Positions 2,110 through 31,199 of a stretch of 42,330 nt of DNA are shown here, piece after piece. The stretch comes from an uncultured Clostridia bacterium (GTDB lineage Bacteria; Bacillota; Clostridia; Christensenellales; Borkfalkiaceae), in contig CAZACR010000001.1 of the NCBI GenBank assembly GCA_964483715.1, forward strand, positions 1 to 42,330, in the 5' to 3' direction. How positions within the stretch are numbered: the stretch's first letter is position 1; the number at the start of each line of letters is the position of its first letter. The notes beneath the pieces are model-generated. The model ran no database searches. It saw only the letters and a program-made list of their open reading frames with translations, and was not told where the DNA came from. Position numbers and translations under genes: made by a program.

Positions 2110-2112
2110 AAC

Positions 2113-3202: not shown

Positions 3203-4192
3203 TTATGCAAGCTTTACGCGAGGGTCTACCAAGCCGTACATTAAGTCGGCAAGAAGCACACCCAGAACCGAAAGTATTGCAAGGAACATATTGTATGTCA
3301 TTATAACGGGAATATCGCCCTGCTGCATTGCCTTTAACGCATAGCTGCCGATACCTGTCAGGTCGAATACCTGTTCGGTAATCATTGCACCGGCAAACAG
3401 CGAAGGTATCAAGCCCGCAAGGCTGGTTACCAAGGGGATTAATGTATTGCGGAAAGCGTGTTTGTAAATTACCTTGCCTTCCTTTAAGCCCTTTGCACGC
3501 GCGGTACGGATATAATCGGAATTAAGTACTTCAAGCATATTGGTACGCGTCATACGCATTCTTCCGCCGATACTTAAAATTACAACTGTAAGTACAGGCA
3601 GGAATAAATGCCATATATAGTCCATAAATTCCGCAAAACCGTTTTCGAACGTTACGCCCGACGTAACCATACCCTGTACGGGGAACCAACCGAGTTTATT
3701 GGCGAATATATCCTTCAGCATCTGTCCGAAGAAGAACGACGGAAGCGATATACCCATAAGCACCAATACAGTTACAACGTAATCACGTATCGAATACTGG
3801 TGGGTTGCCGCCGTAATACCGAGAGGAATCGCAATCAAAAATTCAAACACGGTAGCAATCGCCGCAACTAAGAACGACGTACCTACTCTGTCCGCGTTGA
3901 AGATATCCGACAATACGGGGCGACCCGTAATAAAGCTCGTGCCGAAGTTGCCGGTTAAAATATTGCCAAGCCAATTAAAGTATCCGCTTATAATATTTCC
4001 GTCAAGCCCGTAAGCTTTATACATTGCCTGTTTCATCTCTTCCTGCACTTCCGCGCCGCCCGTGGTGAGTGCAATAATTTTCGCCTCAACAAAGTCCGTA
4101 GGCATACAGCGCAGAAGCGCGTACAGTATAAGAGAAACGCCAAACAATATTAAAATGGATATCAATAATCTTTTAATAATGTATTTAGCCAT
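3203..4192 (-). CDS. oppB: Opp/Dpp-type ABC transporter permease (OppB-like)
   Basis: 329-aa ORF with ATG at 4192. The N-terminus MAKYIIKRLLISILILFGVSLILYALLRCMP and the motif SDYIRTARAKGLKEGKVIYKHAFRNTLIPLVT are typical of OppB/DppB permeases. Confidence 0.92.
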   Translation of the reverse strand: MAKYIIKRLLISILILFGVSLILYALLRCMPTDFVEAKIIALTTGGAEVQEEMKQAMYKAYGLDGNIISGYFNWLGNILTGNFGTSFITGRPVLSDIFNADRVGTSFLVAAIATVFEFLIAIPLGITAATHQYSIRDYVVTVLVLMGISLPSFFFGQMLKDIFANKLGWFPVQGMVTSGVTFENGFAEFMDYIWHLFLPVLTVVILSIGGRMRMTRTNMLEVLNSDYIRTARAKGLKEGKVIYKHAFRNTLIPLVTSLAGLIPSLFAGAMITEQVFDLTGIGSYALKAMQQGDIPVIMTYNMFLAILSVLGVLLADLMYGLVDPRVKLA

Positions 4193-4206
4193 TTTTTATC
4201 CTAAAA

Positions 4207-6816: not shown

Positions 6817-6835
6817 TTTTTTGCCTCCATTTATG

Positions 6836-8413
6836 TTAAACTGAATAAATTATTTCAAAGTTTTCTTTTTCGTCGTAATACGAACCATACGAATAAGATA
6901 CGGTACCGTCCGCCGCTATCGTCGCCTGGTTAGCCCTGTATTCGTAACGGTATCCTCTGCCGTTTATAAACCTGCTGCTTAAGAACCGCAAAGTGAACTG
7001 ACCGACTGCCTCCGGACCACGGCCTTCATACGTAAAAAGGTTAAGGACCGGTAAGTTTACCAACGGCATATTCACTACTTCTAATACACCGCCGTCCAGT
7101 TTTGAGTTCGTAATCGTTGCCCCGTTCTCTACTGAGCCTGCAAACAATCCCAACTTTACTACCAATGTTTTATCTTCTGCTTCTTCGCTCTTTTTTAATT
7201 CAATATTAATTGAAAGCGAAGGTGCTTTGAACGTGATATTTTCAAATACTGCCGATTGTGTTATCACACCGAACAATCCGCCGTATTCGTTGTATCTGTT
7301 AGTGTAAGTTGCCGAAATATTTTTGAACTCGCGCACCTGACTGTCCGAAGAATAGAACCTGCCTTTAAACTCGCCGGACATAAACACGGCAGGCCAGGTC
7401 AAATCGGTAAAATCAAGGTCGGAGGAAATCTCGTACCAACCCAGACTGTTGCCGTTTTCACTCAACTGCTTTGCGTTGGAAATTTTATACCGCTCGCCTT
7501 CTACGACTTCAACGTAAACGTTCTGAATCCTGTTAATTGCAGTCGCCGTTGCTACGTCGAGCGTGCCCTCGTGTTTCAGATATCCGTCGGTTATTTCCTG
7601 TGTACAAGCTTCGTCTTTATAAGCTTTGAAAAACGTAGTACCGCTGACCTTGGGGAATTCGTAAGTATCCTTTTGATTGTTATAAGTGTGCTTGTATTGA
7701 ACGGTTATGTCACCATCATTCCAAACGGGAAGGAAAATCGTATCGCGGTCAGACGTTGTCGACCCCGGAGCGTTTGTGGTTTTATAGTCGAACGAGTAAG
7801 TCGAGTTGGACTTTTCCCATTCGCCGTTTTCATTTTTGAAGTAATAATTGAATTCGTAATACTGCACCCAGCCGGCGTAGAGCGTAAACTCCTTTTTTCC
7901 TTCCGACTCTTCATAAGTAAAAGTATCGGTTTCAAAGTCCCACAAATCGTCGTACGTATAGGCGGGTTCGGAACTCTGCGGTTTTTCGTTGTTTTCCGTA
8001 CCCTTAATAACGTAGCCGTCGAGAGTTTCCGTTAATACTTCGCCCTTTTCGTTGATTACTTCGCCTTGCTCGTTTTTCATTATGTTGCGCGTAGCGTACC
8101 AACCGGTAAAGAAATGCTCCTGCTTGGTAAGAGTAGCGGGCTTCGGACGTACGGAACTCTGCGGCTCAGTCAGTTTTATCTCTATTTTGCCGTCCGCGCT
8201 CTTTTCGAATTCGTCGGGTTTATACAAATCCATAATCTTTGAGTTTTCGGATTCCAACATCTTACCGCCGTTGGAATCGTAAGTAATTTGAATTTTATAC
8301 CCTTGTGCTTCTAAATCGGGAATCGGACTTTTAGAGGTTGCGCATGCCGCAAGACCTGCGGCAAGCGTACCCAAACTCAATAAAGCCAAAATGCATTTAA
8401 GCTTTTTAAACAT
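6836..8413 (-). CDS. Lipoprotein of unknown function, with an N-terminal Flg_new-like repeat region and a C-terminal GLUG-motif-like module
   Basis: 525-aa ORF with ATG 8413. Lipobox LAAC (Cys24). Repeat motifs HFFTGWYATRN...FTLYAGW. C-terminal segment ISNAKQLSENGNSLGWYEISSDLDFTDLTWPAVFMSGEFKGRFYSSDSQVREFKNISATYTNRYNEYGGLFGVITQSAVFENITF matches, from memory, the pattern around GLUG motifs. No search was run. Confidence 0.75.
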   Translation of the reverse strand: MFKKLKCILALLSLGTLAAGLAACATSKSPIPDLEAQGYKIQITYDSNGGKMLESENSKIMDLYKPDEFEKSADGKIEIKLTEPQSSVRPKPATLTKQEHFFTGWYATRNIMKNEQGEVINEKGEVLTETLDGYVIKGTENNEKPQSSEPAYTYDDLWDFETDTFTYEESEGKKEFTLYAGWVQYYEFNYYFKNENGEWEKSNSTYSFDYKTTNAPGSTTSDRDTIFLPVWNDGDITVQYKHTYNNQKDTYEFPKVSGTTFFKAYKDEACTQEITDGYLKHEGTLDVATATAINRIQNVYVEVVEGERYKISNAKQLSENGNSLGWYEISSDLDFTDLTWPAVFMSGEFKGRFYSSDSQVREFKNISATYTNRYNEYGGLFGVITQSAVFENITFKAPSLSINIELKKSEEAEDKTLVVKLGLFAGSVENGATITNSKLDGGVLEVVNMPLVNLPVLNLFTYEGRGPEAVGQFTLRFLSSRFINGRGYRYEYRANQATIAADGTVSYSYGSYYDEKENFEIIYSV

Positions 8414-8439: not shown

Positions 8440-11400
8440 TTATTTTTCTTCGTCTGTTGATGCTTCTTTGTTTTCGACTTCGCCGTCGGCATTAACTTCT
8501 GCATTGCTCTTCTTTCTCATTGTGGTGAGCACAATATAACATACAAGCGCAACCACAGCCACACCCGCTATAATATAGCCGATATAGAAGTTCTTCTGCC
8601 AGAACGACAAACCGTCGCCTTCTTCAGTTGCCGGAGTTACAGGCAGCTCACCTTTTAAATAAACGATAAGCCTTTCCGCTTGCACAAGCGTGGAGTAGTT
8701 GCTTACAAGCGCCTGCTGTTCGGTTGAAGGCAGAGCGTCATACGCCGTACGCGCCGCTACTACCGCATCCTCGTCAGACAATTTAATATTCTCAGGCAAT
8801 GCGTCTATTAAAGCTATAACGTTAATCGTTGCCGACGTCGCAGCATTGGAGCCCTGCACAACCGTATCGAAATACTGCGAGAATATAAACGTGTCATATC
8901 CCTGTCCGTTAGCGGGCTTAACCATTACGAGGTTGCTGTCTATATGTCCGATATAATCGACGAAGTTTGCACCGAAGTAGAAGTTGTTGGGGCTGGAAGT
9001 TATATTCCACATATAATATTTGGAAATGCCCAAGCCTTCGTATGTCGTAGTTCCGCCGTTGCCGTCGCTGGTTACAAGATAACCTGCAAACGGTAAATTC
9101 AGATAAGAGACGTAGCTGCTGCTGTACTCTTCTTCGAGTGCGGGAGCGTCGTAGCTCTTGAATACAACCGTCGTTAAATAATTACAGCCGTAGAAAGCTT
9201 TATCGCCGAGCGACTTTAATGTGTAAGGAAGCGTTACCGTTTTCAGCGAGCTGTCGCAAAGCGCTCTTGCCGATATTCTTACGGTTCCCTCTTCCACTAC
9301 GTAATCCGTACGGTCGCTTAATACGGGGTAGCTGACGAGAACAAGTCCGTTAGGCACTTGCGAATACAGTACGCCGTCTATTACCTTAACGTTGTCGCTG
9401 ACTGAATAGTTTTCGACGAGATTATATCCTACCACCTTACCGCCGAATACGACTTCTTCGAGTTTTCCGAAGCTTGCTATTGCACAGCCGTAGAAAGGAT
9501 TTTCGCCCAGAGCAGCGAGTTTGCTGCCGAGCTTAAGACTCGTAATAGCCGATTGAGCAAACGCAAAGTCGCCGATATATTCCGCCGCCGAAAGGTCTGC
9601 CGACGTTAAAGCAGTTCCTATAAACGCGAAGGCACCTATTTCAACCGCTTTATCGAGATTGCCTACTTCGGTAAGGTCGTAGCAATAACCGAACGCGTTA
9701 GCGCCTATTACTGCCCCCTCCTTTAAGTTTACCACGGAAATGGCGGTGTTGGCAAGCGCTGCCGCGCCCAAAGTTTCGACGTTTGCCAAATTTATGGTAT
9801 TAAGCGCCGAACCGCCGAACGCATAAGCTCCTACCGAACTTACTTTTTCGGGAAGAGTTATCGATTTAAGCTGCTCCGTCATATAGAACGCGTAAGCGGG
9901 TATTTCGGTTATACCGTTACCCAAAGTTACGCTTGAAAGCTTAGAGTTGAACGCGAACGCCCCGAGACCTAAGGAGCTTGCCGCCGAGAGGTCTACGCTC
10001 TCTATCTGAGGAGCGTTTACGGAATAAACGTAATCTACGATATAACGTTCGCCGCCTTCTCCGTTTTCGTTCTCGATATAGGTAAATTCGTAAGCATACA
10101 TCCAGCCGTTAGCCGTACTCCAGTACGCTCTAGTTCTGTTACCTGTAAACGCTTCGTCGCCGACGCTCTTGACTTTGGAAAGGTCGATAGCAGTTATGCC
10201 TACGCAGTCGTAGAACGCAGCCGCACCGATAACGGCGTCTTCGCCCAGGGTTACGTTACCGAGTCTGGGGTTGAACGCAAACGACTGGTCGCCGATAGTT
10301 ACGTTATTACCTATCGAAAGCGTCGTTAATTTGGATAAGCACATATCCGCAGTATTATAACGGTAGTACCTGTAAGTTTCGGGTTCGCCGTTTACGCCCA
10401 CGCTTTCATAATTGAAAGGAGTGTAATATCTTGAGAACCAGTTGTTAACGCCTTCTGCTGACGTAGCCGTGCAATTTTCAAACGTATACGAATAGTTGAC
10501 GTAGTTTGCAAATGCAAGATTGCCGATTTTTACGTTGTTACCTATCGTCACGCTTTGCAGGTTGTCGCAGTTCCTGAACGCCGCAACGCCCACTTCCGCA
10601 CCGTCGGGAATTACCACTTGCGCAATTTTCGAAAATGCGAACGCAGCGTCGCCTATATATTTTATTTTTGAAAGGTCGGGAGGTGTCTGATTAAGACTTG
10701 TCGCGAAGAACGCGTAATCGCCTATCTCCTCCACCTTAGGCATATTCACTGTGTGAAGGTTTTCGCAGTATGCAAAAGCCCTAGCGCCGACAGAAACAAC
10801 ATTAGGTGCGTTTACAACGAATATCCTCTTGTTTGAAGCGAACGCGCCGGCAGCTATGGAGGTTGCGTCCGTGTTCAACACGTTGGTCGCATATGCGGGA
10901 GCAATAAGAACAAGTTCGTCTCCGTTATATACGAGAGTGCCGTTTTCCTTTGCTGTTAAAACAGTATTTTTTGCGTCTATTCTGAAAGAAGATACGTTAG
11001 TTCCCGCAAATGCAAATTCGCCGATAACCGCTACGTCTTTACCGAGAGTTACTCTCGTAAGAGCTTCGCAACCGTTGAACGCATAAGAGGAGATAACAGC
11101 TGCGTTTACGTTTACGGAAATGAGTTTCGTACATTCTGCAAAAGCATACGAACCAATCTTGATTTTCGCCGCTTTGAATTCTACGCTGTTAAGATACTCG
11201 TTTTTGTAGAATGCACCGATACCGAGCGTCTGCGAAGATTCGGGAAGCACCAGGCTGGAGATCTTGCAGTTTTCAAAAGCGTAATTGCCGATTGCAACAA
11301 CCGAATTCAGATTAACCTGATTCAAAGCACAATTCGAAAACGCTCTTTCGTTAATGAATTTTACGTAATTAAGGTTTATCGTGGTCAGGTTTTCACAATC

Positions 11401-14400
11401 TTTGAACGCGCCCACGCCTATCTTTTTAAGCGTAGAGGGAAGAACTACTTCTTTAAGCGCCGTAAGCTTTGCAAACGCGTAAGCTTCTATCGTTTCCACG
11501 CCTTCGGGGATAACGATTTTGGTTATCGTGTCTTCACCGATGGGCGCCTGTTTGATATAGTAAGGGTCTTCTTCGTCGATTATATCGCCTGCCGCCAAAT
11601 CCTTTTCAACGAACTCGTAATTCGAGAACGCATAGGATTGAATTGTCGTTACGCCTCTGTCGTCGGGAATAATAACTTCACCGCCGAGTCCCTTATACGA
11701 CATAAGATAAATCGAGTTTGTAGTATACGGGTCTTTTACGCTGATTGATACGCGTCCCGAATAAAGCGTATTCTTACCGTCGAACGCTACGTTTACGGAT
11801 ATAATGGTGTTACCTTCCGCCTGGGCAACTATAGTACCGTTTTCGTCAACAGTAGCTATCCTTTCGTTGCCCGAACGGTACGAAACCGTAGTTCTGTCGG
11901 GGAAATAGGAATCGAGAGCGTACTGCAACGTTACGCTTTCTGAAGGGAACATCGAAAGGCTGTACGTATTACCGAAATCGTAAGTGCCGCCCGTAATACC
12001 GATCTCCCTCTCCTCGCTCGAAGTTGCGTAATATGCTTTTTCCGTCTTGTAGCCGGTGAGCGTAAACTTATTGACTTCGGGTATTGACAGATTGCCGTTA
12101 TAACCTTCGTCGCCTTCTCCGCGCACTTTTACGCTCAACTGAGCCGTTACTTCCTTGCCGTCTTTATCGTAACCCGTTACGGTTATAACCGCGGTACCGC
12201 TCGATTTTGCGATAAGCGTCTGGTTTGCTACGCCGACAATGTTCTCGTCGGAAGAGGTTATGTCAAGAATCTGCTTCCAGCTGTCGGCGGGATATATATT
12301 CAGGCTTTCGGTAATAAGGAGTGTTTCGTTCGGATTGAGTTGAACCTCTTCCTGCTCGAAGAAAAGCGAAAGCACTTCGTCGGGAAGCCTTATTTCATAG
12401 GTTGCAGAGTTCATTGCATAGTCGTAAACCGACGCAATAAAGCTGTTATTATTAGTATTAATAGATACCGAACCGTCTTCGCCGTAAGAGAAACCTGCCG
12501 ACTGCTTTATCTGATTGATATAATCGGTAAGTTCGACCGTTACTTTGGAAGTGGAATTGAACGACGAATATACGGGGGTTATATACTTTCCGAACGAATG
12601 CATTGTGAACGCGTATTCGGAGCCCGGTTCTGATTCGGTTATCTGACCGAACGACACACCCATCGAATAGTGGTTGTCATAGATGGACAAGTCCGCATAC
12701 AAATGAGTTTGTCTGCTCGTTCTGTCATACTCAGAGCGGAACTCTACGTCCGTTACTATGGGCGCTTCGAAGTCGATAAACAGGGGGAACGTGAACGTAT
12801 TGCGCACGTTTTTCTGGTCGACGTATTTTTCGCTCTGTTCGTCGTATGTGCCGTAGTCGATGTAAGCTTCCACGGTTACGGTATACTTGGTATTGTTTTT
12901 GAGGTTGTTCTCAAGCGCACCGAACTCTACGTCTATGGAAGAACCGTAAATCGTATTACCGCTGCTGCGCGATTTAAGCTGGTTCCATTCCGTTCTCGTG
13001 AAAATACAATTACCCGTAGAATCTTCTACGATTGAGATATCGATTTTTTTAGCATTTCTGAGCAAACCTGCTGTTATGCTTCTTATCGAGTTAATCGCCG
13101 AATTGTTGTCGTCCTGCAAATTGGAAATTGCGATATGGTCTTTGCTTGCCGCAATCGGAGTCGACGCAGGATTCTGAACGAAATAGTATGTGCCGAGCGT
13201 TGCGATATAGTCGCTGTACAATCCGCCGATTACACGGGTTGCATAAGCGTCCGCCATAAGCTTGTCTTCGTCGTCCAGACCTTTATCGAGTTCGTCCACA
13301 TTCGTATCGTAGTATTCTTCGTCGAATATAGGAGCTTCCGTCCAATCGCCGTAGAATGCAAGCATGGGAACGCTAATATCAACCGTCGTACCCTGCGTTG
13401 CCTTTAACGTGATAAAGCCTTCTACGTACATACCGTATTTGAACGATTCGTCCATGAACTTTTTATCCGCATCGGAAAGGGCTATCTTTACGCTTACTCT
13501 CGCGCTTTCGCCGGCCGCCACGGTAACCGAATTACCGCTTGCCGTACGTCCGTTGACAGCCGTAACCGTAGTCGTGGGATTGAGCAGTCTGCCTTCCATC
13601 GTTACGGTAGTATCACCGTGGCTCGTATAAGTCGGGCTGACGCCTTCCGTTTGTATTATGCTGCCGATATCGTACGTGACCGAAGACGAACTTACGTTGT
13701 TTACTGCAAAAGTCATTTCGTAAACGCCTGTTCTGTCCTTATCGTCGCCCAGTTCGAGCTTTGATTTGTTCATCTCGTTGCCGTCTGCATCGAAAGTCGA
13801 AATATAGGCAGCCGTAGTTGTCGATTTTGTAATGTTGATAAGTCCCGCGCCCTGCTTTCTTACAGCATACGGCAAACCGTTCTTGTTATAAACGATATCC
13901 GCCGTGGACATCATAAGCTGGTTTACCCTGGTTGTAACGGTTACGGGGTCGAGGTCGTTACCGAATGTTCCGCTGTACTTGACGTACTGGCGGATAAGCG
14001 TCGCCGCACCCGCAAGGTTGGGAGCAGCCATCGAAGTACCCGATAATCTGTCGTAATCCTGTCCGGGAACTGCGGATAAAATTTCGCCGCCGTGCGCCGT
14101 AATTTCGGGTTTAATCTTCAGATCCGAGGTAGGACCCCAGGAAGAGAAGTCGGACATGAAAGGTCCTGCCGTCTGGCTTCTGCTTATTTTAAGAACGCCC
14201 GTACCTGCCGCCGCGAGCTTCTCGCCCTCGTCCTGAGAGATAGAGCACACCGCACCGATATCCTTGCCGACCGACATAGATATAGTACCTGAAACGTTGT
14301 TGTAAATAATTATGCCGGCAGCGCCCTTGATATTGAGTGCGACTCTTACCTTGTCTTCGAACGTAGTCGTTCCGCGCTTTACAAGGACGATTTTATCTTT

Positions 14401-15867
14401 ATAGAAATCGTTCGTTTCAAGGTAGTCGGATTCACGTCCGATACCGGGAATCGTTACGTAAGTGAATTCGTAACTGTCAACACCTCCCACAGTGGAGAGT
14501 ATGTCATCCATGAAAGATTTCTTTTTCGCCGAAGACGTCGAAGCCTCGGTGAAGTAGATTATATCGTTATTGTATAAAAGATAGGGCGTTTTAACACCGT
14601 CTACGGAAGCAACGGAAAGCGAACCTTCGTATGTTGAAGGCGAGCCGACAGTACCCGAATCGGGATTGGAAGTCAAGCCGTTGCTGCCGTTTTTATCCGA
14701 GCCGAAAGTCGCGTTATAGTCGTTGGAAGCCGCAGTAATCAGCGATATACCCGCTTCGCGGATACTGTCGTAAATATCGTTTACATTCTGCTTATCTACT
14801 TCTCTCGTAAAGCCGCAGGAAGTTCCGAGCGACATATTTATAATGTCGACGCCGAGAATAACGCAGTCCTCGAGAGCCGCCATTATCCATGAAGTCTTAG
14901 CTCCGTCCTGAGAGTCGGAGAAAACCTTCATTATTGCGAGCTGTGCGTTGGGCGCAACGCCCGTAATCGTGTCGTCTTTGCCCGCGATAATGCCCGCAAC
15001 GTGCGTACCGTGCTCCGAATTTATAGGAGCAACGTCCACGTCCTTGTCGGCATAGTCGTATGCGTAAGGCACTTTTTTATTCAAATAAACGTCCTCGCCA
15101 GTAAGATTGGACGTAAATCTGCTTGCCGCAGTTTTGCCGACTTTTTCGGAAACGTTCTGCAAGGTAAACGCTTCCTGTGTAGTAGTGAAGTTTTCAACGC
15201 TGAACGCGCTGTGCGTGTAGTCAAGACCGGTATCGAGAACCGCAACGACAACGCCGTCGCCCTGATATTCGGAAGACGAGCTGTCGAATATACCAGTTTC
15301 GTAAACGTCGACGTCGTTCGTAACAATCTCGGTTGCCGCCTTTTCATAAACGTCGCCGACAATCAGCGTAGCGTCCGACGATAACAAGCTGTTCACCCTG
15401 TCAAAGTCCCTGGCTTTCAGCGTTATTTCAAAACCGCTGATAATCGTGTCGTACTCTTCGCCGACGGTGAAATTCACGCCCGACTTTTCAAGTTTATTTA
15501 TAAGCTTTACGCGTTCCGCAGCTACGTTATCCGCTATAACCTGCGCCTCGTCCGTGTTGGCAAATTCGGAAATTGTCTGATTCGCTTTCGAAACGGAATA
15601 TGCGTCCATTACCGATTGCGTACTCATAGTTACTATAACCGAAACTTCGTCGTTATCCGCTACCGTTTCGGGAAGCTTGTAAACAACTTCGCTATTAAAG
15701 TACTTGTCAACGTCCGACTTGATAGAGTTATCCACTCTGCTGATGGTATTGGCATAAGTCGTTTTGCCGTCGTCACCTTTAAACGCGTACGCAACCGCGC
15801 TTGATGCCAGACACGCCGCAGACAAAACCGCAAGCACGCTAACTGCTGATTTTCTTATCTTCGTCAT
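8440..15867 (-). CDS. Cell-envelope subtilisin-like serine protease (peptidase S8 with PA insert), fused to Big_2-like domains, a BspA-type LRR array and a C-terminal transmembrane anchor
   Basis: 2,475-aa ORF. Signal peptide ends AYA/FK. I9-like propeptide region. Catalytic triad motifs VAVLDTGLDYTH (D212), HGTHVAGIIAG (H286), SGTSMAAPNLAGAATL (S612). PA-like insert IVLVKRGTTTFEDKVRVALNIKGAAGIIIYNN sits between His and Ser. LAFYGDW segment resembles lactocepin/C5a-peptidase Fn3 regions. Two Big_2-like segments (ITSSDENIVGVANQTLIAKSSGTAVITV; RSGNERIATVDENGTIVAQAEGNTIISV). C-terminal helix FYIGYIIAGVAVVALVCYIVLTT is followed by MRKK. Confidence 0.92.
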   Translation of the reverse strand: MTKIRKSAVSVLAVLSAACLASSAVAYAFKGDDGKTTYANTISRVDNSIKSDVDKYFNSEVVYKLPETVADNDEVSVIVTMSTQSVMDAYSVSKANQTISEFANTDEAQVIADNVAAERVKLINKLEKSGVNFTVGEEYDTIISGFEITLKARDFDRVNSLLSSDATLIVGDVYEKAATEIVTNDVDVYETGIFDSSSSEYQGDGVVVAVLDTGLDYTHSAFSVENFTTTQEAFTLQNVSEKVGKTAASRFTSNLTGEDVYLNKKVPYAYDYADKDVDVAPINSEHGTHVAGIIAGKDDTITGVAPNAQLAIMKVFSDSQDGAKTSWIMAALEDCVILGVDIINMSLGTSCGFTREVDKQNVNDIYDSIREAGISLITAASNDYNATFGSDKNGSNGLTSNPDSGTVGSPSTYEGSLSVASVDGVKTPYLLYNNDIIYFTEASTSSAKKKSFMDDILSTVGGVDSYEFTYVTIPGIGRESDYLETNDFYKDKIVLVKRGTTTFEDKVRVALNIKGAAGIIIYNNVSGTISMSVGKDIGAVCSISQDEGEKLAAAGTGVLKISRSQTAGPFMSDFSSWGPTSDLKIKPEITAHGGEILSAVPGQDYDRLSGTSMAAPNLAGAATLIRQYVKYSGTFGNDLDPVTVTTRVNQLMMSTADIVYNKNGLPYAVRKQGAGLINITKSTTTAAYISTFDADGNEMNKSKLELGDDKDRTGVYEMTFAVNNVSSSSVTYDIGSIIQTEGVSPTYTSHGDTTVTMEGRLLNPTTTVTAVNGRTASGNSVTVAAGESARVSVKIALSDADKKFMDESFKYGMYVEGFITLKATQGTTVDISVPMLAFYGDWTEAPIFDEEYYDTNVDELDKGLDDEDKLMADAYATRVIGGLYSDYIATLGTYYFVQNPASTPIAASKDHIAISNLQDDNNSAINSIRSITAGLLRNAKKIDISIVEDSTGNCIFTRTEWNQLKSRSSGNTIYGSSIDVEFGALENNLKNNTKYTVTVEAYIDYGTYDEQSEKYVDQKNVRNTFTFPLFIDFEAPIVTDVEFRSEYDRTSRQTHLYADLSIYDNHYSMGVSFGQITESEPGSEYAFTMHSFGKYITPVYSSFNSTSKVTVELTDYINQIKQSAGFSYGEDGSVSINTNNNSFIASVYDYAMNSATYEIRLPDEVLSLFFEQEEVQLNPNETLLITESLNIYPADSWKQILDITSSDENIVGVANQTLIAKSSGTAVITVTGYDKDGKEVTAQLSVKVRGEGDEGYNGNLSIPEVNKFTLTGYKTEKAYYATSSEEREIGITGGTYDFGNTYSLSMFPSESVTLQYALDSYFPDRTTVSYRSGNERIATVDENGTIVAQAEGNTIISVNVAFDGKNTLYSGRVSISVKDPYTTNSIYLMSYKGLGGEVIIPDDRGVTTIQSYAFSNYEFVEKDLAAGDIIDEEDPYYIKQAPIGEDTITKIVIPEGVETIEAYAFAKLTALKEVVLPSTLKKIGVGAFKDCENLTTINLNYVKFINERAFSNCALNQVNLNSVVAIGNYAFENCKISSLVLPESSQTLGIGAFYKNEYLNSVEFKAAKIKIGSYAFAECTKLISVNVNAAVISSYAFNGCEALTRVTLGKDVAVIGEFAFAGTNVSSFRIDAKNTVLTAKENGTLVYNGDELVLIAPAYATNVLNTDATSIAAGAFASNKRIFVVNAPNVVSVGARAFAYCENLHTVNMPKVEEIGDYAFFATSLNQTPPDLSKIKYIGDAAFAFSKIAQVVIPDGAEVGVAAFRNCDNLQSVTIGNNVKIGNLAFANYVNYSYTFENCTATSAEGVNNWFSRYYTPFNYESVGVNGEPETYRYYRYNTADMCLSKLTTLSIGNNVTIGDQSFAFNPRLGNVTLGEDAVIGAAAFYDCVGITAIDLSKVKSVGDEAFTGNRTRAYWSTANGWMYAYEFTYIENENGEGGERYIVDYVYSVNAPQIESVDLSAASSLGLGAFAFNSKLSSVTLGNGITEIPAYAFYMTEQLKSITLPEKVSSVGAYAFGGSALNTINLANVETLGAAALANTAISVVNLKEGAVIGANAFGYCYDLTEVGNLDKAVEIGAFAFIGTALTSADLSAAEYIGDFAFAQSAITSLKLGSKLAALGENPFYGCAIASFGKLEEVVFGGKVVGYNLVENYSVSDNVKVIDGVLYSQVPNGLVLVSYPVLSDRTDYVVEEGTVRISARALCDSSLKTVTLPYTLKSLGDKAFYGCNYLTTVVFKSYDAPALEEEYSSSYVSYLNLPFAGYLVTSDGNGGTTTYEGLGISKYYMWNITSSPNNFYFGANFVDYIGHIDSNLVMVKPANGQGYDTFIFSQYFDTVVQGSNAATSATINVIALIDALPENIKLSDEDAVVAARTAYDALPSTEQQALVSNYSTLVQAERLIVYLKGELPVTPATEEGDGLSFWQKNFYIGYIIAGVAVVALVCYIVLTTMRKKSNAEVNADGEVENKEASTDEEK
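9157..11715 (-). repeat. BspA-type leucine-rich-repeat (LRR_5-like) coding array inside the protease gene (about aa 1385-2237)
   Basis: Recurrent units of roughly 22-25 aa, such as IPEGVETIEAYAFAKLTALKEVVLPSTLKKIGVGAFKDCENLTTINL and NVVSVGARAFAYCENLHTVNMPKVEEIGDYAFF. Boundaries estimated by eye. Confidence 0.8.
13828..15285 (-). other. Region encoding the S8 catalytic domain with the PA-domain insertion (about aa 195-680 of the 2,475-aa protein)
   Basis: Coordinates derive from my residue count: D212 about 15232-15234, H286 about 15010-15012, S612 about 14032-14034. Boundaries are approximate. Confidence 0.8.
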
Positions 15868-15910: not shown

Positions 15911-18900
15911 TTAAACGCTTTCTTCCACTGCCTGAACAACCGCCACGCCGTCCTCGATTTTAACCGTGAACGTACCCGCGTAAGTCAGAACCGTATATGT
16001 GCCGCTTTGTTCGTCGTAAGAGCTGGACCTTGCCAACAACGAGTAACCATTGAAGTAAATCAACACAACTTTGTTATCGCCGGAAATATCCACATACGTG
16101 CGCGTGTTTGCACCGTAAGTTGTGGTAACTTCGGTTTTGACCACGCTTGCCGAAACGTACGGGGTTACCTCGTTTTCACTGCTTCCCGGCTTTTCCGCAA
16201 ACGAAACTTTATAATATGTGGTGGCAGTGATGCGGTTATCTTCTACAGTTCTTGAAATGTAGTAAACCGCACCGTCCTCGTCGATTATTCCTGAAGTGAA
16301 CGGAACATCTTCACCGTTATACTTCAAACTTATCCTATACGGGTTGCCGGGGGTAGTTTGCGAATCGGTCATTATTATTCTTTCTACTTCAACCGTATAT
16401 CCGCCGTCGGCTTCAAGAGTTTGTACGCGGGTTAAAGCTATTATCTGATAGCCCGACATACTTTGCATTACCTGTTGAACGCCGAAACGCAACCTGTATG
16501 TATAACCGTCCTCCAAAACAACTTCCGTAGTATACGTGCGGTTAGCGTAAGTGTAAGGAGTTTTAACGAAATTGAAATGATTACCTTCCGAGTCCACGAC
16601 TCCCATTCTCTCGCCGAATTCGGTAAGAATATAGGTTTCGCCTATGATATCGCAATTCACGTCATAATCCGCACCGATTGTTATAGTGCCCAAAACGTCC
16701 TGCAAATTTGCCGCATAATTGCTGCCCGTCAGCATATCCATAATCAGAGCGTACATATAGCTGTTTAAATACATCACCGACTGATATTGGTTGACCGCAC
16801 GGCAAGAAGTTATTTTATAAGTGTTAAGAATTGTGCCGTCTTCCGCAGCTCCGTTGTACTCTATTTCTATGTCGTAACGCATTACGCCGACGTTTAAACG
16901 AACGGTTAAATAGGTTTCTATAACGCCGTTCTTTTCTTCGCGGATAACGTTGCACGCTACGGGCTTGCCGTCTATCGTCACGGTGCCGCTGTTATTGAAC
17001 GAACTGCCGCCCGAAGGGGTAAAATTAAGGTTTTCCAACGCCGCTTTAACGGGAACCTGAACAGGGTCCTTTACGGGATTTCCGTTTTTATCCAAAACGG
17101 GGTTGCCGTTCGCATCAAGACGCGTTTCGTAAACTATGTTGCCGTATTCGTCCTTTTTATCTTCGTAACGCAAGATTATAGGATAGTTGTTTGCTTCGTT
17201 ACCCGCTTCGCCGCGCTTGAATTTCAGCTCAAATCCGTCGTTGGCGATATAATCTTTGCCAAGATAAGTTTTGTTATCGGTAAATTTGCCGAAATCTTCT
17301 ACAATAAAGCCGTATTCGTTTACAGTATCTTTTTCTTTGCCGGGACGGTAAATAATTATGTTGCCGTCTTCCGATTCCTGATAGTAATATCTGGACGCGC
17401 CGTTTACTACAACGAAACCGTACTGGGTAAAGCTGAGCGCTTCCAAATCCTTGGTGTAATAGCTTTTGCCTGTCAAATCCTTTATTTTCTCAACAGTCTT
17501 ATTCTGGGTATCGTAGATATAGGTGCCGGCACCTTCTTCCGAGCTACCCGCAAAATAGAGCATATTGTTTGTTACAAGGGTATAGCTTCCTCTCTCCCTT
17601 TCACCCTGCGCGTTATATCTTATAACGCCGCCGATTTTGTCGAGAATAAATACAGAATGGTCTTCACTGTTAACGTAAGTATGCTCAACTTCTTCGTGGA
17701 TAATAACGAGTACTGGTATGGTTGAGCTTCCGCTTGAAACATATCTGCGGGCGCCTACCAAAGTCTTGCCGTCACCATAGGTGATGGAAATTAAATCACT
17801 GCTGCCGATAATCTCGTAAGTAGCGTCATCTGCCAGCAACTTGAAGCCGTCCGGCTCGTCTTCGTCGATTTGACGGATTTCCGCATGTCCCTTTCCGTCT
17901 AAGAATACGATTTTTCCGTCAGAGTATCCGTTGTTGAGTACGACGTAATTGGAATACTCTTCACCGCGCAAATAGAAAGATCTGCCGCCTTCTATATCGA
18001 AGTAACGAATCTGACCTTCTATAGCCATAGCGAGTAAATTTTCGCCGGCTATCATATGAACGCCGCTGAAGTTGTTGCCCTCCTCGTCTGTGTATACAGC
18101 CTGGAAAGTGAAGCCGTCGAGTTCGAGAATGCCTTTGCCGGTATAAGTACCGTAATATTCCGTATTCCTCTTTGCAAAGAATTGCGCTGACGACGTGGAT
18201 ATCCGAATGAATTCGAAAGTCATACTGCCGTCTGATGCCGTGAAAGTGAATATATAATTACCGAACGAAGTTTCGCCGCTCCTTACATAAGTACCGACGA
18301 CGGATTTGAGTTCCGTACCCTCCATAAAGTTATAGGTTACACCGTTCTCCGTTCCGTCGAAATACAAATAATAGTTTTGGTCGGTATTGCCGTTTGCCTG
18401 GTTTTCGTATGCTGTGGAAGGCGCACTTACCAATTCCTCAAATGTTTTCGAAGAAGAATTCAGTCTGACGTAAACGGGGTTGGAAGCCGATATCGTGGTT
18501 ACTCCGTTAGAAGCCGTGGAGTAGCTACCTACCGAAACGACGCCACTCTTTGTGAATATCGCGTATCCCGCAACAAATTCTATTTTCGCACCGCTGTCGC
18601 TGGTATATACCGTAGTTAAATCGACTTTTTCGTCCTCGGTCTTTTCCACCCAGAAGTTTACAGGATAATTTCCGCTGTTTTCACTGCGGTAACCCGTTAA
18701 GAACTTGAACGATTTGAGTGCAACGACGTCGAAAGGAATTATTTCCGCTTCGTCTATTTCAAAATGTTCGGTCTTGGTGAAAACCATATAGCCGTCGCTT
18801 GACTGCTCGCAAGTGCCGTTCGCGATGAGTTTAATCGCACCGGTCTGCGTCCTTTGATAGAGAGACGCCTTGCCTGCGGCACCGTCGTTGAGAGCTAAAA

Positions 18901-27264: not shown

Positions 27265-29268
27265 TCACATATTGTCGCGCGCTTGTAGTAGCCACTCTAT
27301 GAAAAGCAGCCCCACCAACGCCGCGGCGAGCCAGACCAAAAGGTCGTTATAGTTATCGTTTGCATCATAAACCTTGCGCGGGTCGTATAAAACGTCCTCC
27401 AATTCACACACGTTGCTTTCTTCCGATGGAATGGATACGTAGATTTTTTCCACAACATTACTTGCGTGACCGAAAGGAATTTGTATAAGTTCGTAAGTTC
27501 CCGGCTTATGAAGCGAAATATTTGCCGGCAAATTTTCCAATACCTGTTCGCTTCCGTCAAATGATTTAACCGTAAGTTTATCTACTCGGGAATTGATTGT
27601 GATATTTTCGTCTACTTGGAAATAAGTGCCGTCTACCGTAGAAGGGAAGAAGTGCAAAATCATATTGCGCATTAGCATATAAAAATCGCCGGACGAAATG
27701 CCAAGATTGGACTTATGCAAGTCGAATGCGAGCACCATAACGTTTTCGAACTCGTTTTCTTTTAACAATATCGTTGGATTACTCCCGCACGAAGCCAAAA
27801 TTTCGTATTTCGAGATAGACGTGACCTTATTAACAAAACTAATGCCGACGCGGGAAATGTCTACGCCTTGCAACAGCGGATGTTCCATTTCCTGCTTCAT
27901 CGCGTACATACGTGTACCATTGCCGAGGGGCAGCTCACTGCCGAAACTAAGCCCGGAGCCCGCGGGGGCAGTGTTAGGATTAACCAGCATAACGACGCCG
28001 TCGCTGGGCATAACCTTAGGCATTGAGTGTTCGAAAATGTAAAAGTCGAATCCGTGATCAGCCGCATGCCCTACTTTCGGCTCCGCTATTTCTATGTCCC
28101 AATATGAGGAAAATCTGGTTTGTAAAACGGGCAAAACGCCTTGGAAAAACGGATTGGGTAACGAACTCGCATACTGAATTTTAAGCGTGCGCCTCTCACC
28201 GCCGTAAATGAAATAGTCGTTATCAGCCTCGAAGTTGTCCTGCTCGGTAACAAATATGTGAACGCTTTCGTAAGCGAATACCTTTTGGTTGTCTAAAAGC
28301 GAACAAACTATCGTATCTTCCGTTTCGTAATCCTGGTTAACTATCGAATCGCTTCTGAAAACCACAGTTTTAACATTATCGCGGTCGCAAACCACCGGCT
28401 GAGTATACTTTACAGTAGTGCCGTGTGGGTTGGCATCGTCGGGATTTGCGCGTATAATTTCCACGTTGACATTAAGTTCGGCATCCTTGCCGTAGCAAGC
28501 GACATCAACGAAGAATGTATAATAATTATCGTCTATTTGCGTGCGTGCGTTTAAAATCGCAGCGTTCCACTCCTCTTTTTCCGATACGTCAACCACGGTT
28601 ATGCCCTGCGGCACAAAGGAATATTTTTTATCCGTATAAAGATAAATTTGCGCAGAGGGATTAATTTCAAGCACCTCGTTGCAAAGCTCCATCGCTGCTT
28701 CAATGTCGGAGGAACCGTAAGAACAAGCCAAATCTTCGCCGTTAACCAAACTGCGGAGCGCGGTCTGGAACCTGTTTTTTTGCGTATACTCTGCACGGAG
28801 CATTGAAAAAACCGTACCATCCTCCTGCTCCACGCCGAAATAATAAGGGTTATCGTCTGCGATTATAACCGACAAAAAACCTTGCCGACCGAAAATTTCG
28901 TCGGAAAGGCTTTCTACTTTATCCACTGCTCTTTCGTAGCGCGTTTCTCCCGCTGTTTGCGTGCGCATACTCGCCGAAGAATCAACGATTGCTATTGCTT
29001 CGTATTCGTCTACAAAAGTCTTTGTAATCTGAACGGGTTTTGACAAAATTAACGCACAAGCAATGAGTATGAGAATTTGACAAAGTATGAGAATAATATT
29101 CCTTATCTTGCTGACAGGAATTCTTTTCTTTTTGTATTTCATACTCAGTTTCCATACAAAAGTACTGGAAACCAATTTTTGCTCGTAATTGGGGCGTATG
29201 ACGTAGATTAAAATCAATACGATTATTGAAATTAACCCCAATAACCCCAAAGGAATCAGTAAACTCAT
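27265..29268 (-). CDS. BatA-N-type double-TM / vWA domain membrane protein (667 aa) with a C-terminal TM helix
   Basis: ATG 29268 overlaps the DUF58 stop (ATGA), suggesting translational coupling. N-terminus MSLLIPLGLLGLISIIVLILIYVI, basic loop KYKKKRIPVSKIRN, then a second helix. MIDAS motif AIAIVDSSASMRTQ. C-terminal helix LLVWLAAALVGLLFIEWLL. Confidence 0.85.
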   Translation of the reverse strand: MSLLIPLGLLGLISIIVLILIYVIRPNYEQKLVSSTFVWKLSMKYKKKRIPVSKIRNIILILCQILILIACALILSKPVQITKTFVDEYEAIAIVDSSASMRTQTAGETRYERAVDKVESLSDEIFGRQGFLSVIIADDNPYYFGVEQEDGTVFSMLRAEYTQKNRFQTALRSLVNGEDLACSYGSSDIEAAMELCNEVLEINPSAQIYLYTDKKYSFVPQGITVVDVSEKEEWNAAILNARTQIDDNYYTFFVDVACYGKDAELNVNVEIIRANPDDANPHGTTVKYTQPVVCDRDNVKTVVFRSDSIVNQDYETEDTIVCSLLDNQKVFAYESVHIFVTEQDNFEADNDYFIYGGERRTLKIQYASSLPNPFFQGVLPVLQTRFSSYWDIEIAEPKVGHAADHGFDFYIFEHSMPKVMPSDGVVMLVNPNTAPAGSGLSFGSELPLGNGTRMYAMKQEMEHPLLQGVDISRVGISFVNKVTSISKYEILASCGSNPTILLKENEFENVMVLAFDLHKSNLGISSGDFYMLMRNMILHFFPSTVDGTYFQVDENITINSRVDKLTVKSFDGSEQVLENLPANISLHKPGTYELIQIPFGHASNVVEKIYVSIPSEESNVCELEDVLYDPRKVYDANDNYNDLLVWLAAALVGLLFIEWLLQARDNM

Positions 29269-30164
29269 GACATAATACCCACTTTAAACAGTTCGCCGAA
29301 AAAGACTTTTTCAATAGGCTGACTCGCGTCTACGGAAATGAAATCCACGCCGCGCTTACTGCAAAAATCTTTTATGCTCTGTTTAAAATCGTTAAAAGCC
29401 TGCGCATATGCGTTAAGCATAGAGCGGCTTATCCTTATTCTCATATTTTTATTATCCGATAAATCCACAGATTCGGAATCGAGAAGATTTATACGCCCGT
29501 TGTAAGACGGGTCCACTTCCTCCGGCGCAAGCACCTGCACCAAAAGAACTTGTTTTTTCTTGTAGCTGAAATAGTCCACCGCTTTTTTCCAGTCGCTGTC
29601 AGTGAAAAAGTCCGAAATAATAACCGCCAGACCGTTATTAGAACCGCCGTCAGTGCAACTGGCAACGCAAGCGTTGATGTCAGTATCTCCGTCAAACTGA
29701 ATTTCTTCAAGCGCGCTTATGGCCTTGAAGAACGCAGTTTTGCCCACTATCGTGCCGAAAGGGTTTTCAGCTTTGTCGCCCTTCATAACGTTAAAGCTGA
29801 CTTTGTCCATATTATGCACGGCGAGATAGCCCATAGCCGCCGCCGTTGCAATCGCGTACGCACCCTTTTTATGGTTGGACTTACCCATCGAAGCCGAGCA
29901 ATCCAGGAAGATTTGCACGTGCATTTGCCTTTCGTCTGTGAACAGTTTCAAAAAGTATTTTTCGAAACGGCTGAAAAGATTCCAGTCTATTCTCCTTATA
30001 TCGTCTCCCAGCTGATATTCTCTGTAATCGGCAAATTCCACCGTTTGTCCGTAAGTCTTGACAAGGTGTTTACCGCCGAAATATCCGGCGAGGTTTGGTT
30101 TTAAGTTGAATGCCAACGCTTCCAGCCTGCTGAAAAACGTATCGTTTAAATAGGAACCTTTCAT
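29265..30164 (-). CDS. DUF58 family protein (the vWA-fold partner usually found next to MoxR)
   Basis: 299-aa ORF. Hallmark motif ADYREYQLGDDIRRIDWNLFSRFEKYFLKLFTDE followed by FLDCSASMG. No TM helix or signal peptide. Located immediately downstream of the MoxR gene. Confidence 0.9.
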   Translation of the reverse strand: MKGSYLNDTFFSRLEALAFNLKPNLAGYFGGKHLVKTYGQTVEFADYREYQLGDDIRRIDWNLFSRFEKYFLKLFTDERQMHVQIFLDCSASMGKSNHKKGAYAIATAAAMGYLAVHNMDKVSFNVMKGDKAENPFGTIVGKTAFFKAISALEEIQFDGDTDINACVASCTDGGSNNGLAVIISDFFTDSDWKKAVDYFSYKKKQVLLVQVLAPEEVDPSYNGRINLLDSESVDLSDNKNMRIRISRSMLNAYAQAFNDFKQSIKDFCSKRGVDFISVDASQPIEKVFFGELFKVGIMS

Positions 30165-30200
30165 CGCTTCTCCGCCGAATTAAGTACGGCGACTTTTTAA

Positions 30201-31199
30201 TTACTTCTTTTCTTTGTATTTCTTGCTGACTTCGTCGACGATCAGTTTAACCACGTCGTCGGCACTTGCGCGCTCTGCAATAGCTTCGAAATTGAGCTTT
30301 ATGCGGTGACGAAGTACGGGCAAAGCAAGTTCGTTGATGTCCGAGTACGCAACGTTAAACCTGCCTTTTATAAGCGCCATAACCTTGCCTGCTGAAATCA
30401 GAGCTTGTCCCGCACGGGGAGAAGCACCTACTCTTACATATTTCTTAGCCGCTTCGGAAGCACATTCGCCGTCCGGATGCGTAGCAGAAATAAGCGTCAT
30501 CGCATAGCGCATAACGTCAGATGCAACTGGAATTTGGTTTGCCGTTGCACGCATTGCCAAAAGCTGTTCGCCGTCGCAAACGCCTTCCGCAACTTCCGCC
30601 ATCGTCTTTTGTGTCATATCTACGATTTGCATAAGTTCGTCCAGGCTGGGGTTAGGAACGTTTACTTTAAACATGAAACGGTCCATCTGCGCTTCAGGCA
30701 ACGGATAAGTGCCGTCCTGCTCTATAGGGTTTTGGGTTGCAAGAACGAAGAACGGTTCGTTCAACGGGCGGGAAGTGCCCATAACCGTTACGGTATGCTC
30801 CTGCATTGCTTCCAAAAGAGCCGACTGCGTTTTGGGAGTTGCACGGTTGATTTCGTCAGCAAGAATAATATTGCTGAAAATAGGACCCGGCTGGAAGCTG
30901 AAGGTCGAATTTCCGTCTTCGCCCTTTACGATAATGTTAGTACCGGTAACGTCGGCAGGCATCAAATCGGGGGTGAACTGAATACGCGAAAAGGGCAGAT
31001 TAAAAACTCTGCCCAGTGATCTTACAAGTCGCGTTTTACCTACGCCCGGTACACCTTCCAAAAGTACGTTACCGCCTGCAATCATTGCAATTATGGTATT
31101 TTCCACCACCTCTTTTTGTCCGATTACGTCTTTTGAAACCTCGGCAAAAATCTTGTCGCATTGCTTGCAAAACTGCTCTATGCTTTTTTCTGTAACCAT
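30201..31199 (-). CDS. moxR: MoxR-family AAA+ ATPase
   Basis: 332-aa ORF. Walker A LLEGVPGVGKTRL, Walker B plus family motif IILADEINRATPKTQSALLEAMQEHTVTV, and FFVLATQNPIEQDGTYPLPEAQMDRF, which is typical of the AAA_3/MoxR subfamily. Confidence 0.95.
   Translation of the reverse strand: MVTEKSIEQFCKQCDKIFAEVSKDVIGQKEVVENTIIAMIAGGNVLLEGVPGVGKTRLVRSLGRVFNLPFSRIQFTPDLMPADVTGTNIIVKGEDGNSTFSFQPGPIFSNIILADEINRATPKTQSALLEAMQEHTVTVMGTSRPLNEPFFVLATQNPIEQDGTYPLPEAQMDRFMFKVNVPNPSLDELMQIVDMTQKTMAEVAEGVCDGEQLLAMRATANQIPVASDVMRYAMTLISATHPDGECASEAAKKYVRVGASPRAGQALISAGKVMALIKGRFNVAYSDINELALPVLRHRIKLNFEAIAERASADDVVKLIVDEVSKKYKEKK

Follow-up and report, generated by a model that had tools for sequence, protein, structure and literature searches.

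What kind of protein is encoded at positions 15911..20995 (minus strand) of a 42,330-nucleotide stretch from an uncultured Clostridia bacterium (GenBank assembly GCA_964483715.1, contig CAZACR010000001.1, Borkfalkiaceae), and with which of its neighbours does it work? Below, the window means this whole stretch, and X means the 1,694-amino-acid (aa) protein encoded by the gene in question. Minus-strand genes form one long run across the window, and the X open reading frame, with an ATG start and including the stop codon, lies where an earlier reading made from the letters alone had placed it. That sequence-only reading described X as an orphan lipoprotein made of about 8–10 divergent small modules and standing first in a protease/Opp unit. 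We found that the repeat is genuine, that X belongs to a family of uniform architecture, and that its most constant partners are encoded upstream. From this context we propose, with slightly less than even confidence, that X has no enzymatic activity and serves at the cell surface as a scaffold or binding protein in an apparatus that captures protein and takes up peptides.

Internal repeat of X

The motifs listed in the sequence-only reading are all found in X, at aa 427, 535, 610, 877, 957, 1030 and 1116. Within aa 332–1270 the pattern h-x-h-D-[GEK] (h, hydrophobic) occurs nine times, against 1.65 ± 1.27 in 5,000 shuffled sequences, an enrichment of about 5-fold; followed by [GA]-[ST]-Y it occurs six times, against 0.12 in the shuffles. 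Self-BLAST of the single sequence gave marginal matches (best E values 0.004–0.05). Profile self-alignment with hhalign gave a best off-diagonal match of P = 2.5e-10 with a 7-sequence profile, and with a 42-sequence family profile it gave fourteen off-diagonal alignments above 50% probability (best P = 1.8e-13, 98%; further ones P = 2.7e-8, 1.3e-7 and others, at 94–98%).

Unit-level comparisons and iterated hidden Markov models (HMMs) of single units link eight segments, listed as modules in Table 1. The unit HMMs find 3–4 copies per protein in all 42 family members, and the control search gave no match below 1e-3 in reversed or shuffled family sequences. Residues of the motif fall in conserved columns of the family (L957, L959, D960, G961, G1034 and G1036). 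Four of the modules, beginning at aa 591, 787, 941 and 1101, form a tight set (type A), and two, beginning at aa 416 and 1023, form type B. Long self-alignments offset by about 170–200 aa point to a duplication of A+B super-units. A further three all-beta segments, similar in size (aa 345–415, 690–786 and 1183–1265), show no demonstrable relation to the other modules with the unit HMMs, and self-hhalign found neither an internal repeat nor a relation to the modules in aa 1321–1694. Thus the repeat and its signature have statistical support from both profile self-comparison and iterated HMMs, and the estimate of 8–10 modules was about right, with eight demonstrably homologous.

Predicted structure of the module array

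The first AlphaFold2 (AF2) model, covering aa 332–1310 (979 aa, 7 sequences), is all-beta but of moderate confidence only, with a predicted local distance difference test (pLDDT) score of 71 and a predicted TM-score (pTM) of 0.40. Its Foldseek matches were uninformative, Rhs and teneurin proteins appearing only at TM-scores of 0.07–0.09. The second model, covering the five modules of aa 786–1180 (31 sequences), is confident, with a pLDDT of 92.8 and a pTM of 0.81; it contains 35 strands and no helix, with 7–8 strands per module. Such a high pTM points to modules packed together as a single rigid body and against domains joined only loosely.

Foldseek searches of the PDB with the five-module model returned only multi-propeller proteins (DDB1, SF3B3, CPSF160, Elp and the BT4663 sensor) at TM-scores of 0.07–0.19 and root-mean-square deviations of about 20–30 Å; similar propeller and MORN-type matches came from BFVD, and in neither database was a global structural analogue found (TM-score at most 0.19). 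Since the TM-scores are this low and the deviations are at least about 20 Å, the similarity to multi-propeller proteins is local and concerns antiparallel hairpins. The multi-propeller and hairpin-repeat proteins (DDB1, CPSF160, the BT4663 sensor domain and MORN-repeat proteins) share a hairpin geometry with X, with Foldseek probabilities up to 1.0, but differ from it in the low TM-scores and in sequence (about 8–10% identity), and X has no propeller or MORN match in Pfam. We rejected a MORN reading of X because of these TM-scores. In a mean-field direct coupling analysis of 599 pooled type-A modules, directed at barrel closure, gap columns dominated and only the adjacent beta3–beta4 hairpin was recovered.

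Membrane anchor, N-terminal repeats and C-terminal domain

X starts with the signal peptide MKKFLLVISLILMGAASAFMASC, which ends in a lipobox ([LVI][ASTVI][GAS]-C with a conserved cysteine), present here as MKKFLLVISLILMGAASAFMAS-C23. The −3 residue, M, is slightly atypical, most homologues having L/V/A-x-[GAS]-C, and at least 90% of 56 homologues keep Cys23. On this basis X is predicted to be a bacterial lipoprotein and a substrate of Lgt and Lsp. Four homologues (loci L034, L038, L041 and L049) have a long, uncleaved N-terminal transmembrane anchor and no lipobox cysteine. Because these few homologues swap the lipobox for another hydrophobic anchor, N-terminal membrane attachment appears to be the conserved property; the four N-termini also suggest a switch between lipid and transmembrane anchoring within the family.

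Next come copies of the Flg_new repeat (PF09479; 67.5 bits against a gathering cut-off of 27, E 1.1e-18, 3 stretches), at aa 27–98, 94–173 and 239–332 according to the profile self-alignment with hhalign. The NCBIfam model TIGR02543 is matched as well, and Flg_new was matched in 28 of 28 X homologues. The earlier count of three or four copies is thereby reduced to three, a fourth appearing neither in the Pfam stretches nor in the profile self-alignment. Flg_new is the sole family that the Pfam and NCBIfam scans recognised in X, and the InlB B-repeat was the only match of the full-length family profile to PDB sequences. The statement that no characterised family covers the remaining ~1,350 aa thus holds for Pfam, NCBIfam and PDB sequences. 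X resembles the Flg_new/InlB B-repeat surface proteins of Firmicutes and Bacteroidota (e.g., Listeria InlB) in its three bona fide N-terminal copies and in its predicted export and surface location. It differs from them in that Flg_new makes up only ~300 of 1,694 aa and in having no LRR, GW, LPXTG or other domain typical of the characterised members.

At the other end of the protein, the C-terminal domain has invariant residues F1325, P1327, D1496, Y1500 and Y1595, none of them catalytic-looking, and no Pfam or PDB sequence match. The insertion of about 50 aa that precedes it (aa 1271–1320) contains a short tandem DANGNPVLDKNGNPVKDPV and is absent from about two thirds of homologues.

Family and distribution

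An exhaustive search of 1.84 billion cluster representatives (50% identity) recovered 339 X-family proteins, that is, 339 clusters, at E up to 1e-3 and 234 at E up to 1e-30. In a scan of one genome per species at least 44 X loci were found, so X is not the orphan it had been taken for. It should be noted that word-indexed protein search badly under-reports this family (6 relatives with one sequence, 7 with an alignment). Among the 150 matches listed, nearly all are ~1,630–1,870 aa long with the module region at about residues 330–1,270, and the full-length orthologues, of 1,630–1,780 aa, share one uniform architecture. Identity of the homologues to the X of the window is 28–40%, with one relative at 93%.

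The carriers are metagenome-assembled genomes (MAGs) from the gut of humans, chickens, rabbits and ruminants; they bear the names Candidatus (Ca.) Borkfalkia, which is placed in Christensenellales, Ca. Scatosoma, Christensenellaceae or "uncultured Clostridia". The family is uncharacterised and restricted to this lineage, with two or three domain types that are probably new, and literature searches returned nothing on it or on a gene cluster of this type. Two MAGs carry two X loci each (L018 and L021 in RGIG8483, L036 and L037 in RGIG10265), which could be paralogous clusters or strain mixing within the bin.

Searches with the core profile and the unit HMMs found no paralogous modules in the other proteins of the window or in all open reading frames of the 49 loci. 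The N-terminal module of a 3,148-aa protein of the window had been credited with the same signature (GVYYGESNGKECEIELDGSS... at aa 41). This resemblance is limited to a short hairpin motif, and neither the core profile (best E 0.11) nor the unit HMMs (E at least 0.7) matched that protein.

Gene neighbourhood

Synteny was compared over 49 non-redundant loci, the denominators being the loci with enough flank. Upstream, the BspA-type LRR_5 protein adjoins X in 40 of 40 loci; it is accompanied by the double-VWA membrane protein (36/37), the BatA-type protein with transmembrane and VWA segments (34/34) and the DUF58 protein (28/31), and MoxR is present at every locus whose flank reached that far. 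In the window, MoxR AAA_3 (PF07726, E 2e-61), DUF58 (PF01882, E 1e-31) and the BatA-type VWA protein (PF07584 and PF13519) are adjacent and form a Bat-type cluster.

Downstream, an S8 protease with PA and LRR_5 domains directly follows X in 24 of 41 loci (59%), with gaps of 27–459 bp, and a ~520-aa lipoprotein follows the protease where the latter is present. The order X-S8-~520 aa-SBP5-OppB-OppC-OppD-OppF was found in 3 of 3 loci reached through SBP5 orthologues (L052–L054), so this arrangement recurs in other species. Orthologues of the protease are 50–68% identical, against 30–40% for X, which evolves much faster. Most of the large proteins encoded in the cluster have export or anchor signals. 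X, the 525-aa protein, SBP5 and the 3,148-aa protein each have a lipobox, and the LRR_5 protein begins with a lipobox-like sequence; the S8 protease combines a signal peptide with a C-terminal transmembrane anchor, and both VWA proteins contain transmembrane segments.

The gap between the LRR_5 and X genes is 232 bp and contains a terminator-like hairpin and a promoter. With the S8 gene beginning 43 bp after it, X does look in this window like the first gene of the protease/Opp unit. The claim that X belongs primarily to that unit found no support, since its invariable partners (LRR_5, VWA, BatA-VWA, DUF58 and MoxR) are upstream and S8 follows in 24 of 41 loci. Given the universal Bat-like/LRR linkage and a protease/Opp linkage in most species, we place X at the junction of two gene modules.

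Bat-type MoxR/DUF58/VWA operons are envelope-associated, and as far as we know the classical ones continue with tetratricopeptide-repeat proteins (BatC–E); BspA-type LRR proteins are adhesins. The window resembles the Bat operons (Bacteroides aerotolerance operon; Borrelia BB0170–BB0176, PMC5700661) in having MoxR (AAA_3), DUF58, a BatA-type VWA protein with an N-terminal double transmembrane segment and a second VWA membrane protein, but it continues with the BspA-type LRR lipoprotein and X, and often with the protease/Opp unit. VWA proteins beside MoxR are conserved in Borrelia too (PMC5700661). Literature searches found no description of the combination of Bat-type genes, LRR and X, with or without protease/Opp.

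Proposed role of X and alternatives

According to the model we propose, X would be exported by Sec and, through lipid on Cys23, anchored on the outside of the cytoplasmic membrane; the cell would be that of a Gram-positive gut Clostridium in the Christensenellales/Borkfalkia group. Going outward from this anchor, X would present three Flg_new domains, about eleven diverged modules of 75–100 residues, a variable linker and the C-terminal domain of ~370 residues; the modules, with 7–8 antiparallel strands each, are predicted to form a single rigid body. X would then be a structural scaffold or a ligand-binding part of a surface apparatus, whose constant partners would be the BspA-type LRR lipoprotein and the Bat-like membrane VWA proteins with DUF58 and the MoxR ATPase. 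In most species this apparatus would be encoded together with a giant membrane-anchored S8 cell-envelope protease, a lipoprotein, an oversized OppA-like binder and OppBCDF, and in this genome X is predicted to be co-transcribed with the S8/Opp genes. The whole system may capture extracellular protein, cut it and import the peptides. We favour a non-enzymatic scaffold or binding protein because the lack of an enzyme signature, the lipid anchor, the rigid beta array and the exported neighbours point the same way together; no enzyme family was found in X by Pfam, NCBIfam or PDB profile search, and G, Y, F, D and R predominate among its conserved residues.

Several points weigh against this proposal. 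The module array is unlike any solved or viral predicted structure searched (TM-score at most 0.19), so that the choice of "scaffold or binding" is made for want of other signals. Only 59% of loci have the S8/Opp unit next to X, hence the link to proteolysis is not obligatory, and the constant partners define no function because MoxR/DUF58/VWA (Bat-type) systems have no established role themselves. In addition, the C-terminal 370 aa could hold an unrecognised activity, and the relatives of X are named only "hypothetical protein" in the sources searched.

One alternative overlaps with this proposal. X may be a tandem array of small lipocalin-like (calycin-type) beta-barrels, each with a ligand pocket, in which case it would bind small hydrophobic molecules or peptides multivalently and not be a passive scaffold; we consider this possible but doubtful. 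In a Pfam scan of 98 module sequences, five matched Lipocalin_4 (best E 2.2e-4) and four DUF5640, the only families matched by more than two of them, and these matches concentrate in orthologues of the two mutually related type-B modules. One orthologous unit scored 22.5 bits against the Lipocalin_4 gathering score of 22.4 (other orthologous units 15–18 bits), and the family consensus matched Lipocalin_4 for unit 1023–1100 (E 5.7e-4, 21.2 bits) and for unit 416–512 (E 8e-3, 17.5 bits). Seven to eight strands in ~80 aa per module would also fit a small up-and-down barrel. On the other hand, the modules of the window's own X have no Lipocalin_4 or DUF5640 match, and type-A modules have none either; DUF5640 reaches at most 18.7 bits against a cut-off of 28.5, the Lipocalin_4 matches cover only profile positions ~25–80 of 89, and no lipocalin is among the Foldseek top 50 of the five-module model. 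Moreover, a profile of pooled modules gave non-significant matches to the PDB, 7 of 17 being bulb-type lectin folds (E 0.05–3.3), with which the modules have the hairpin h-x-h-x-x-D-G-N-h-x-h-Y in common. The signature h-x-h-D-G-x-G-x-h-x-Y may therefore be a generic hairpin motif.

The impression of lipocalin-like modules given by the sequence-only reading is thus supported in part, by borderline Lipocalin_4/DUF5640 matches for two module types in orthologues and family consensus sequences; against it stand the modules of the window itself and the top structural matches, which include no lipocalin. Judged from the sequences, it is the best available guess, short of established membership. Compared with Lipocalin_4 (PF13648) and DUF5640 (PF18692), the modules of X are similar in size (~80–90 aa), in the all-beta meander of 7–8 strands, in the pattern G-x-Y ... 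h-x-h-D-G-x-G ... G-x-Y-x-h and in their occurrence in lipoproteins; the difference is that the type-B matches are partial and about or below the gathering score. To our knowledge, Lipocalin_4 and DUF5640 domains occur singly or in pairs and not as some eleven tandem copies in a rigid body. Two other fold assignments were rejected: the bulb-type (beta-prism II) lectin, with only the non-significant PDB matches above and no B_lectin match in Pfam, and the Rhs/YD-repeat shell, with no RHS_repeat match to the modules at E up to 10 and TM-scores of 0.07–0.09 to Rhs and teneurin proteins.

The combination of S8 with PA and Fn3-like domains is that of lactococcal PrtP and of the C5a peptidase of streptococci; together with Opp, such proteases make up the protein-foraging system of lactic acid bacteria. 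By analogy with the lactococcal lipoprotein PrtM, X might be a dedicated accessory that folds, positions, activates or restrains the S8 protease. The X gene does lie 43 bp upstream of the S8 gene, under its own promoter, and the two are adjacent in 24 of 41 loci at 27–459 bp and again in L052–L054. We nevertheless regard this role as unlikely, since S8 is missing behind X in 17 of 41 loci whereas linkage to LRR_5/VWA is universal, no chaperone domain, of PpiC/PrsA type or other, is present in X, 1,694 aa is very large for a maturase, and X diverges much faster than the protease. The narrower form of the idea, a PrtM/PrsA-type maturation lipoprotein, was rejected, as Pfam and NCBIfam find no parvulin (Rotamase) domain in X or its homologues. 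The window shares with the lactococcal/streptococcal system (PrtP/ScpA-type S8, PrtM and Opp) an S8 protease with PA and Fn3-like domains, an OppA-like lipoprotein, OppBCDF and a lipoprotein gene beside the protease gene. It differs in that X lacks the parvulin/PrsA domain and has about five times the size of PrtM, in the BspA-type LRRs and C-terminal transmembrane anchor (not an LPXTG or S-layer-type anchor) of the protease, and in the X–protease linkage, which holds in only 59% of loci.

Very improbable, in our estimate, is that the module array is the beta-propeller component of a MoxR–vWA–beta-propeller ternary (conflict or signalling) system. In its favour are a match of the MoxR protein to PF20030 (bpMoxR, E 1.4e-10) and the top Foldseek matches, all of them multi-propeller proteins (such as DDB1, CPSF160, SF3B3 and BT4663); however, no closed propeller superposes on a model with a pLDDT of 92.8 (TM-score 0.07–0.19, 20–30 Å), and MoxR matches AAA_3 far better (E 2e-61). 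The partners, DUF58, BatA and transmembrane VWA proteins, are those of Bat-type operons; X is an exported lipoprotein and not a cytoplasmic effector; and no WD40, Kelch or other propeller family of Pfam is matched above threshold. A closed propeller is largely refuted by the TM-scores (best 0.19, at ~20 Å or more). Finally, a chance or compositional origin of the motif in a beta-rich, G/Y/T/D-rich protein, without true duplication, to which the marginal self-BLAST and the three unlinkable segments of eleven might point, is barely credible and is refuted for the eight modules by profile P values down to 1.8e-13, by the HMM copies in all 42 members with clean reversed and shuffled controls, and by the motif enrichment (9 against 1.65).

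Returning to the scaffold or binding role, one may go further and suppose that the module array is an undescribed rigid beta-architecture and that X and the LRR lipoprotein are extracellular clients or partners of the Bat-type MoxR/DUF58/VWA machine. A first concrete output of this widespread system would then be to assemble or hold, in uncultured gut Christensenellales, a complex at the surface by which proteins are captured and passed on to the giant cell-envelope protease and the Opp importer; we put this forward as speculation with a low probability. At the least, X offers candidates for new domain families in its eight related modules and its C-terminal domain. Some 80% of X (~1,350 aa) falls into no curated sequence family, yet X is conserved over its full length in hundreds of clusters, in a poorly known and mostly uncultured branch of gut Clostridia (Borkfalkia, Scatosoma and Christensenellaceae). 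X also marks a conserved cluster of ~38 kb that unites three elements usually separate: a Bat-type MoxR/VWA module, LRR surface proteins of the BspA type, and the cell-envelope protease together with Opp. If the proposed role is true, this cluster would be a main protein-foraging or adhesion apparatus of these bacteria and a way into the function of Bat-type MoxR/VWA systems. Interest is limited by the fact that surface repeat lipoproteins are a known kind of protein and that for X the role is deduced from context.

Features of the locus

Table 1. Features of X and of its neighbours in the window, in the order of transcription; residue numbers refer to X.
Feature	Position	Strand	Basis or remark
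3,148-aa lipoprotein	32628..42074	−	lipobox LAGC
351-aa protein, Flg_new_2 domain	31226..32281	−	hydrophobic N-terminus; precedes MoxR
Bat-like module: MoxR AAA_3 ATPase, DUF58, BatA-type transmembrane+VWA, 973-aa double-VWA membrane protein	24331..31199	−	Pfam
973-aa membrane protein of this module	24331..27252	−	two VWA domains, N- and C-terminal transmembrane segments; weak GATase1_like (E 0.003)
1,022-aa BspA-type LRR_5 protein	21228..24296	−	lipobox-like N-terminus; adjoins X upstream in 40/40 loci
Terminator-like hairpin just after the LRR_5 gene	21166..21197	−	sequence; 13-bp stem, 7 G-C pairs
Near-consensus sigma-70-type promoter	21064..21093	−	sequence; TTGACA, 18 nt, TG-n-TATGAT, 11/12 matches
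Ribosome-binding site AGGAGG	21003..21008	−	sequence; 7 nt before the X ATG
Signal peptide with lipobox, aa 1-23	20927..20995	−	...FMAS-C23; sequence reading, Cys23 conservation
N-terminal region, three Flg_new (Listeria-Bacteroides/InlB B-repeat) copies and ~65-aa segment aa 174-238	20000..20917	−	Pfam PF09479, TIGR02543, PDB profile, self-hhalign
All-beta segment aa 345-415	19751..19963	−	highly conserved YL-x-RG-x-x-FKG-x-Y; not demonstrably homologous to modules
Module aa 416-512, type B	19460..19750	−	LHLDEYNG...KGTY; hhalign vs aa 1015-1105, 92%; HMMs u866 and u1015; consensus Lipocalin_4 E 0.008
Module aa 520-590	19226..19438	−	LKIDGYGNAV; iterated HMM u520 also matches aa 599-684
Module aa 591-689, type A	18929..19225	−	LYMDGLYNAVY...TGSY; hhalign vs aa 940-1020, 92.7%; iterated HMM E 5e-9
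All-beta segment aa 690-786	18638..18928	−	LALNDGAAGKASLY; not demonstrably homologous to modules
Module aa 787-866, type A	18398..18637	−	IEFVAGYAIF...VGSY; hhalign vs aa 944-1009, 92.3%; iterated HMM E 1e-9; confident AF2 model
Module aa 867-940	18176..18397	−	LYFDGTENGVTY...VGTY; hhalign vs aa 607-657, 81-86%; HMM u866; AF2 model
Module aa 941-1022, type A	17930..18175	−	GTYTGKGILELDGFTFQAVY; type-A HMM seed; D960 and G961 invariant; AF2 model
Module aa 1023-1100, type B	17696..17929	−	VFLDGKGHAEI...DATYEII; hhalign vs aa 427-507, 92%; borderline Lipocalin_4/DUF5640 in orthologues and consensus; AF2 model
Module aa 1101-1182, type A	17450..17695	−	FILDKIGGVIRY...RGSYTLV; iterated HMM E 4e-16; among the family's most conserved parts
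All-beta segment aa 1183-1265	17201..17449	−	highly conserved YYT..L..L.F...G ... N.YGF; not demonstrably homologous to modules
Lineage-specific insertion/linker aa 1271-1320	17036..17185	−	…DANGNPVLDKNGNPVKDPV…; gapped in ~two thirds of homologues
C-terminal domain aa 1321-1694	15914..17035	−	family-conserved, not repeat-related
2,475-aa S8 peptidase with PA, fn3_5, LRR_5 and C-terminal transmembrane anchor	8440..15867	−	43 bp after X; follows X in 24/41 loci
Rest of downstream unit: 525-aa lipoprotein, 869-aa SBP_bac_5 lipoprotein, OppB, OppC, Opp ATPase	700..8413	−	
525-aa lipoprotein of this unit	6836..8413	−	LAAGLAAC; no Pfam match
SBP_bac_5 lipoprotein of this unit	4207..6816	−	OppA-like, oversized at 869 aa

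Some of the neighbours listed in Table 1 have features of their own. The S8 peptidase has about seven BspA-type LRR_5 blocks beside the PA and fn3_5 domains, the latter as in PrtP and C5a peptidase. The SBP_bac_5 lipoprotein matches its Pfam family in 2 stretches (best listed, aa 102–170) and has more than 1,800 relatives at E up to 1e-30; the 120 listed are 860–970 aa long, at ~57–64% identity or more. The 525-aa lipoprotein has only the signal peptide, the Flg_new region and a weaker stretch (aa 95–364 against X 274–486, 76% probability) in common with X; its N-terminus aligns to the signal peptide and first Flg_new copy of X (hhalign, 96%).

The 17 of 41 loci without S8 after X include L001, L010, L013, L019, L025, L032, L034, L045, L046, L048 and L051. 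At L001 (15640–21692) two unannotated proteins of ~1,000 aa follow X instead, and at L041 a relative of the 3,148-aa protein takes the place of the protease. The 3,148-aa lipoprotein has an LRR_5-like similarity to the 1,022-aa protein (~25% identity, tblastn) and a small N-terminal module with a weak DUF6672 match (E 0.007). Upstream, the 973-aa double-VWA protein is larger than classical BatB, and at L041 and L046 the BatA-type gene is immediately preceded by the relative of the 351-aa protein, and DUF58 was not detected between the two.

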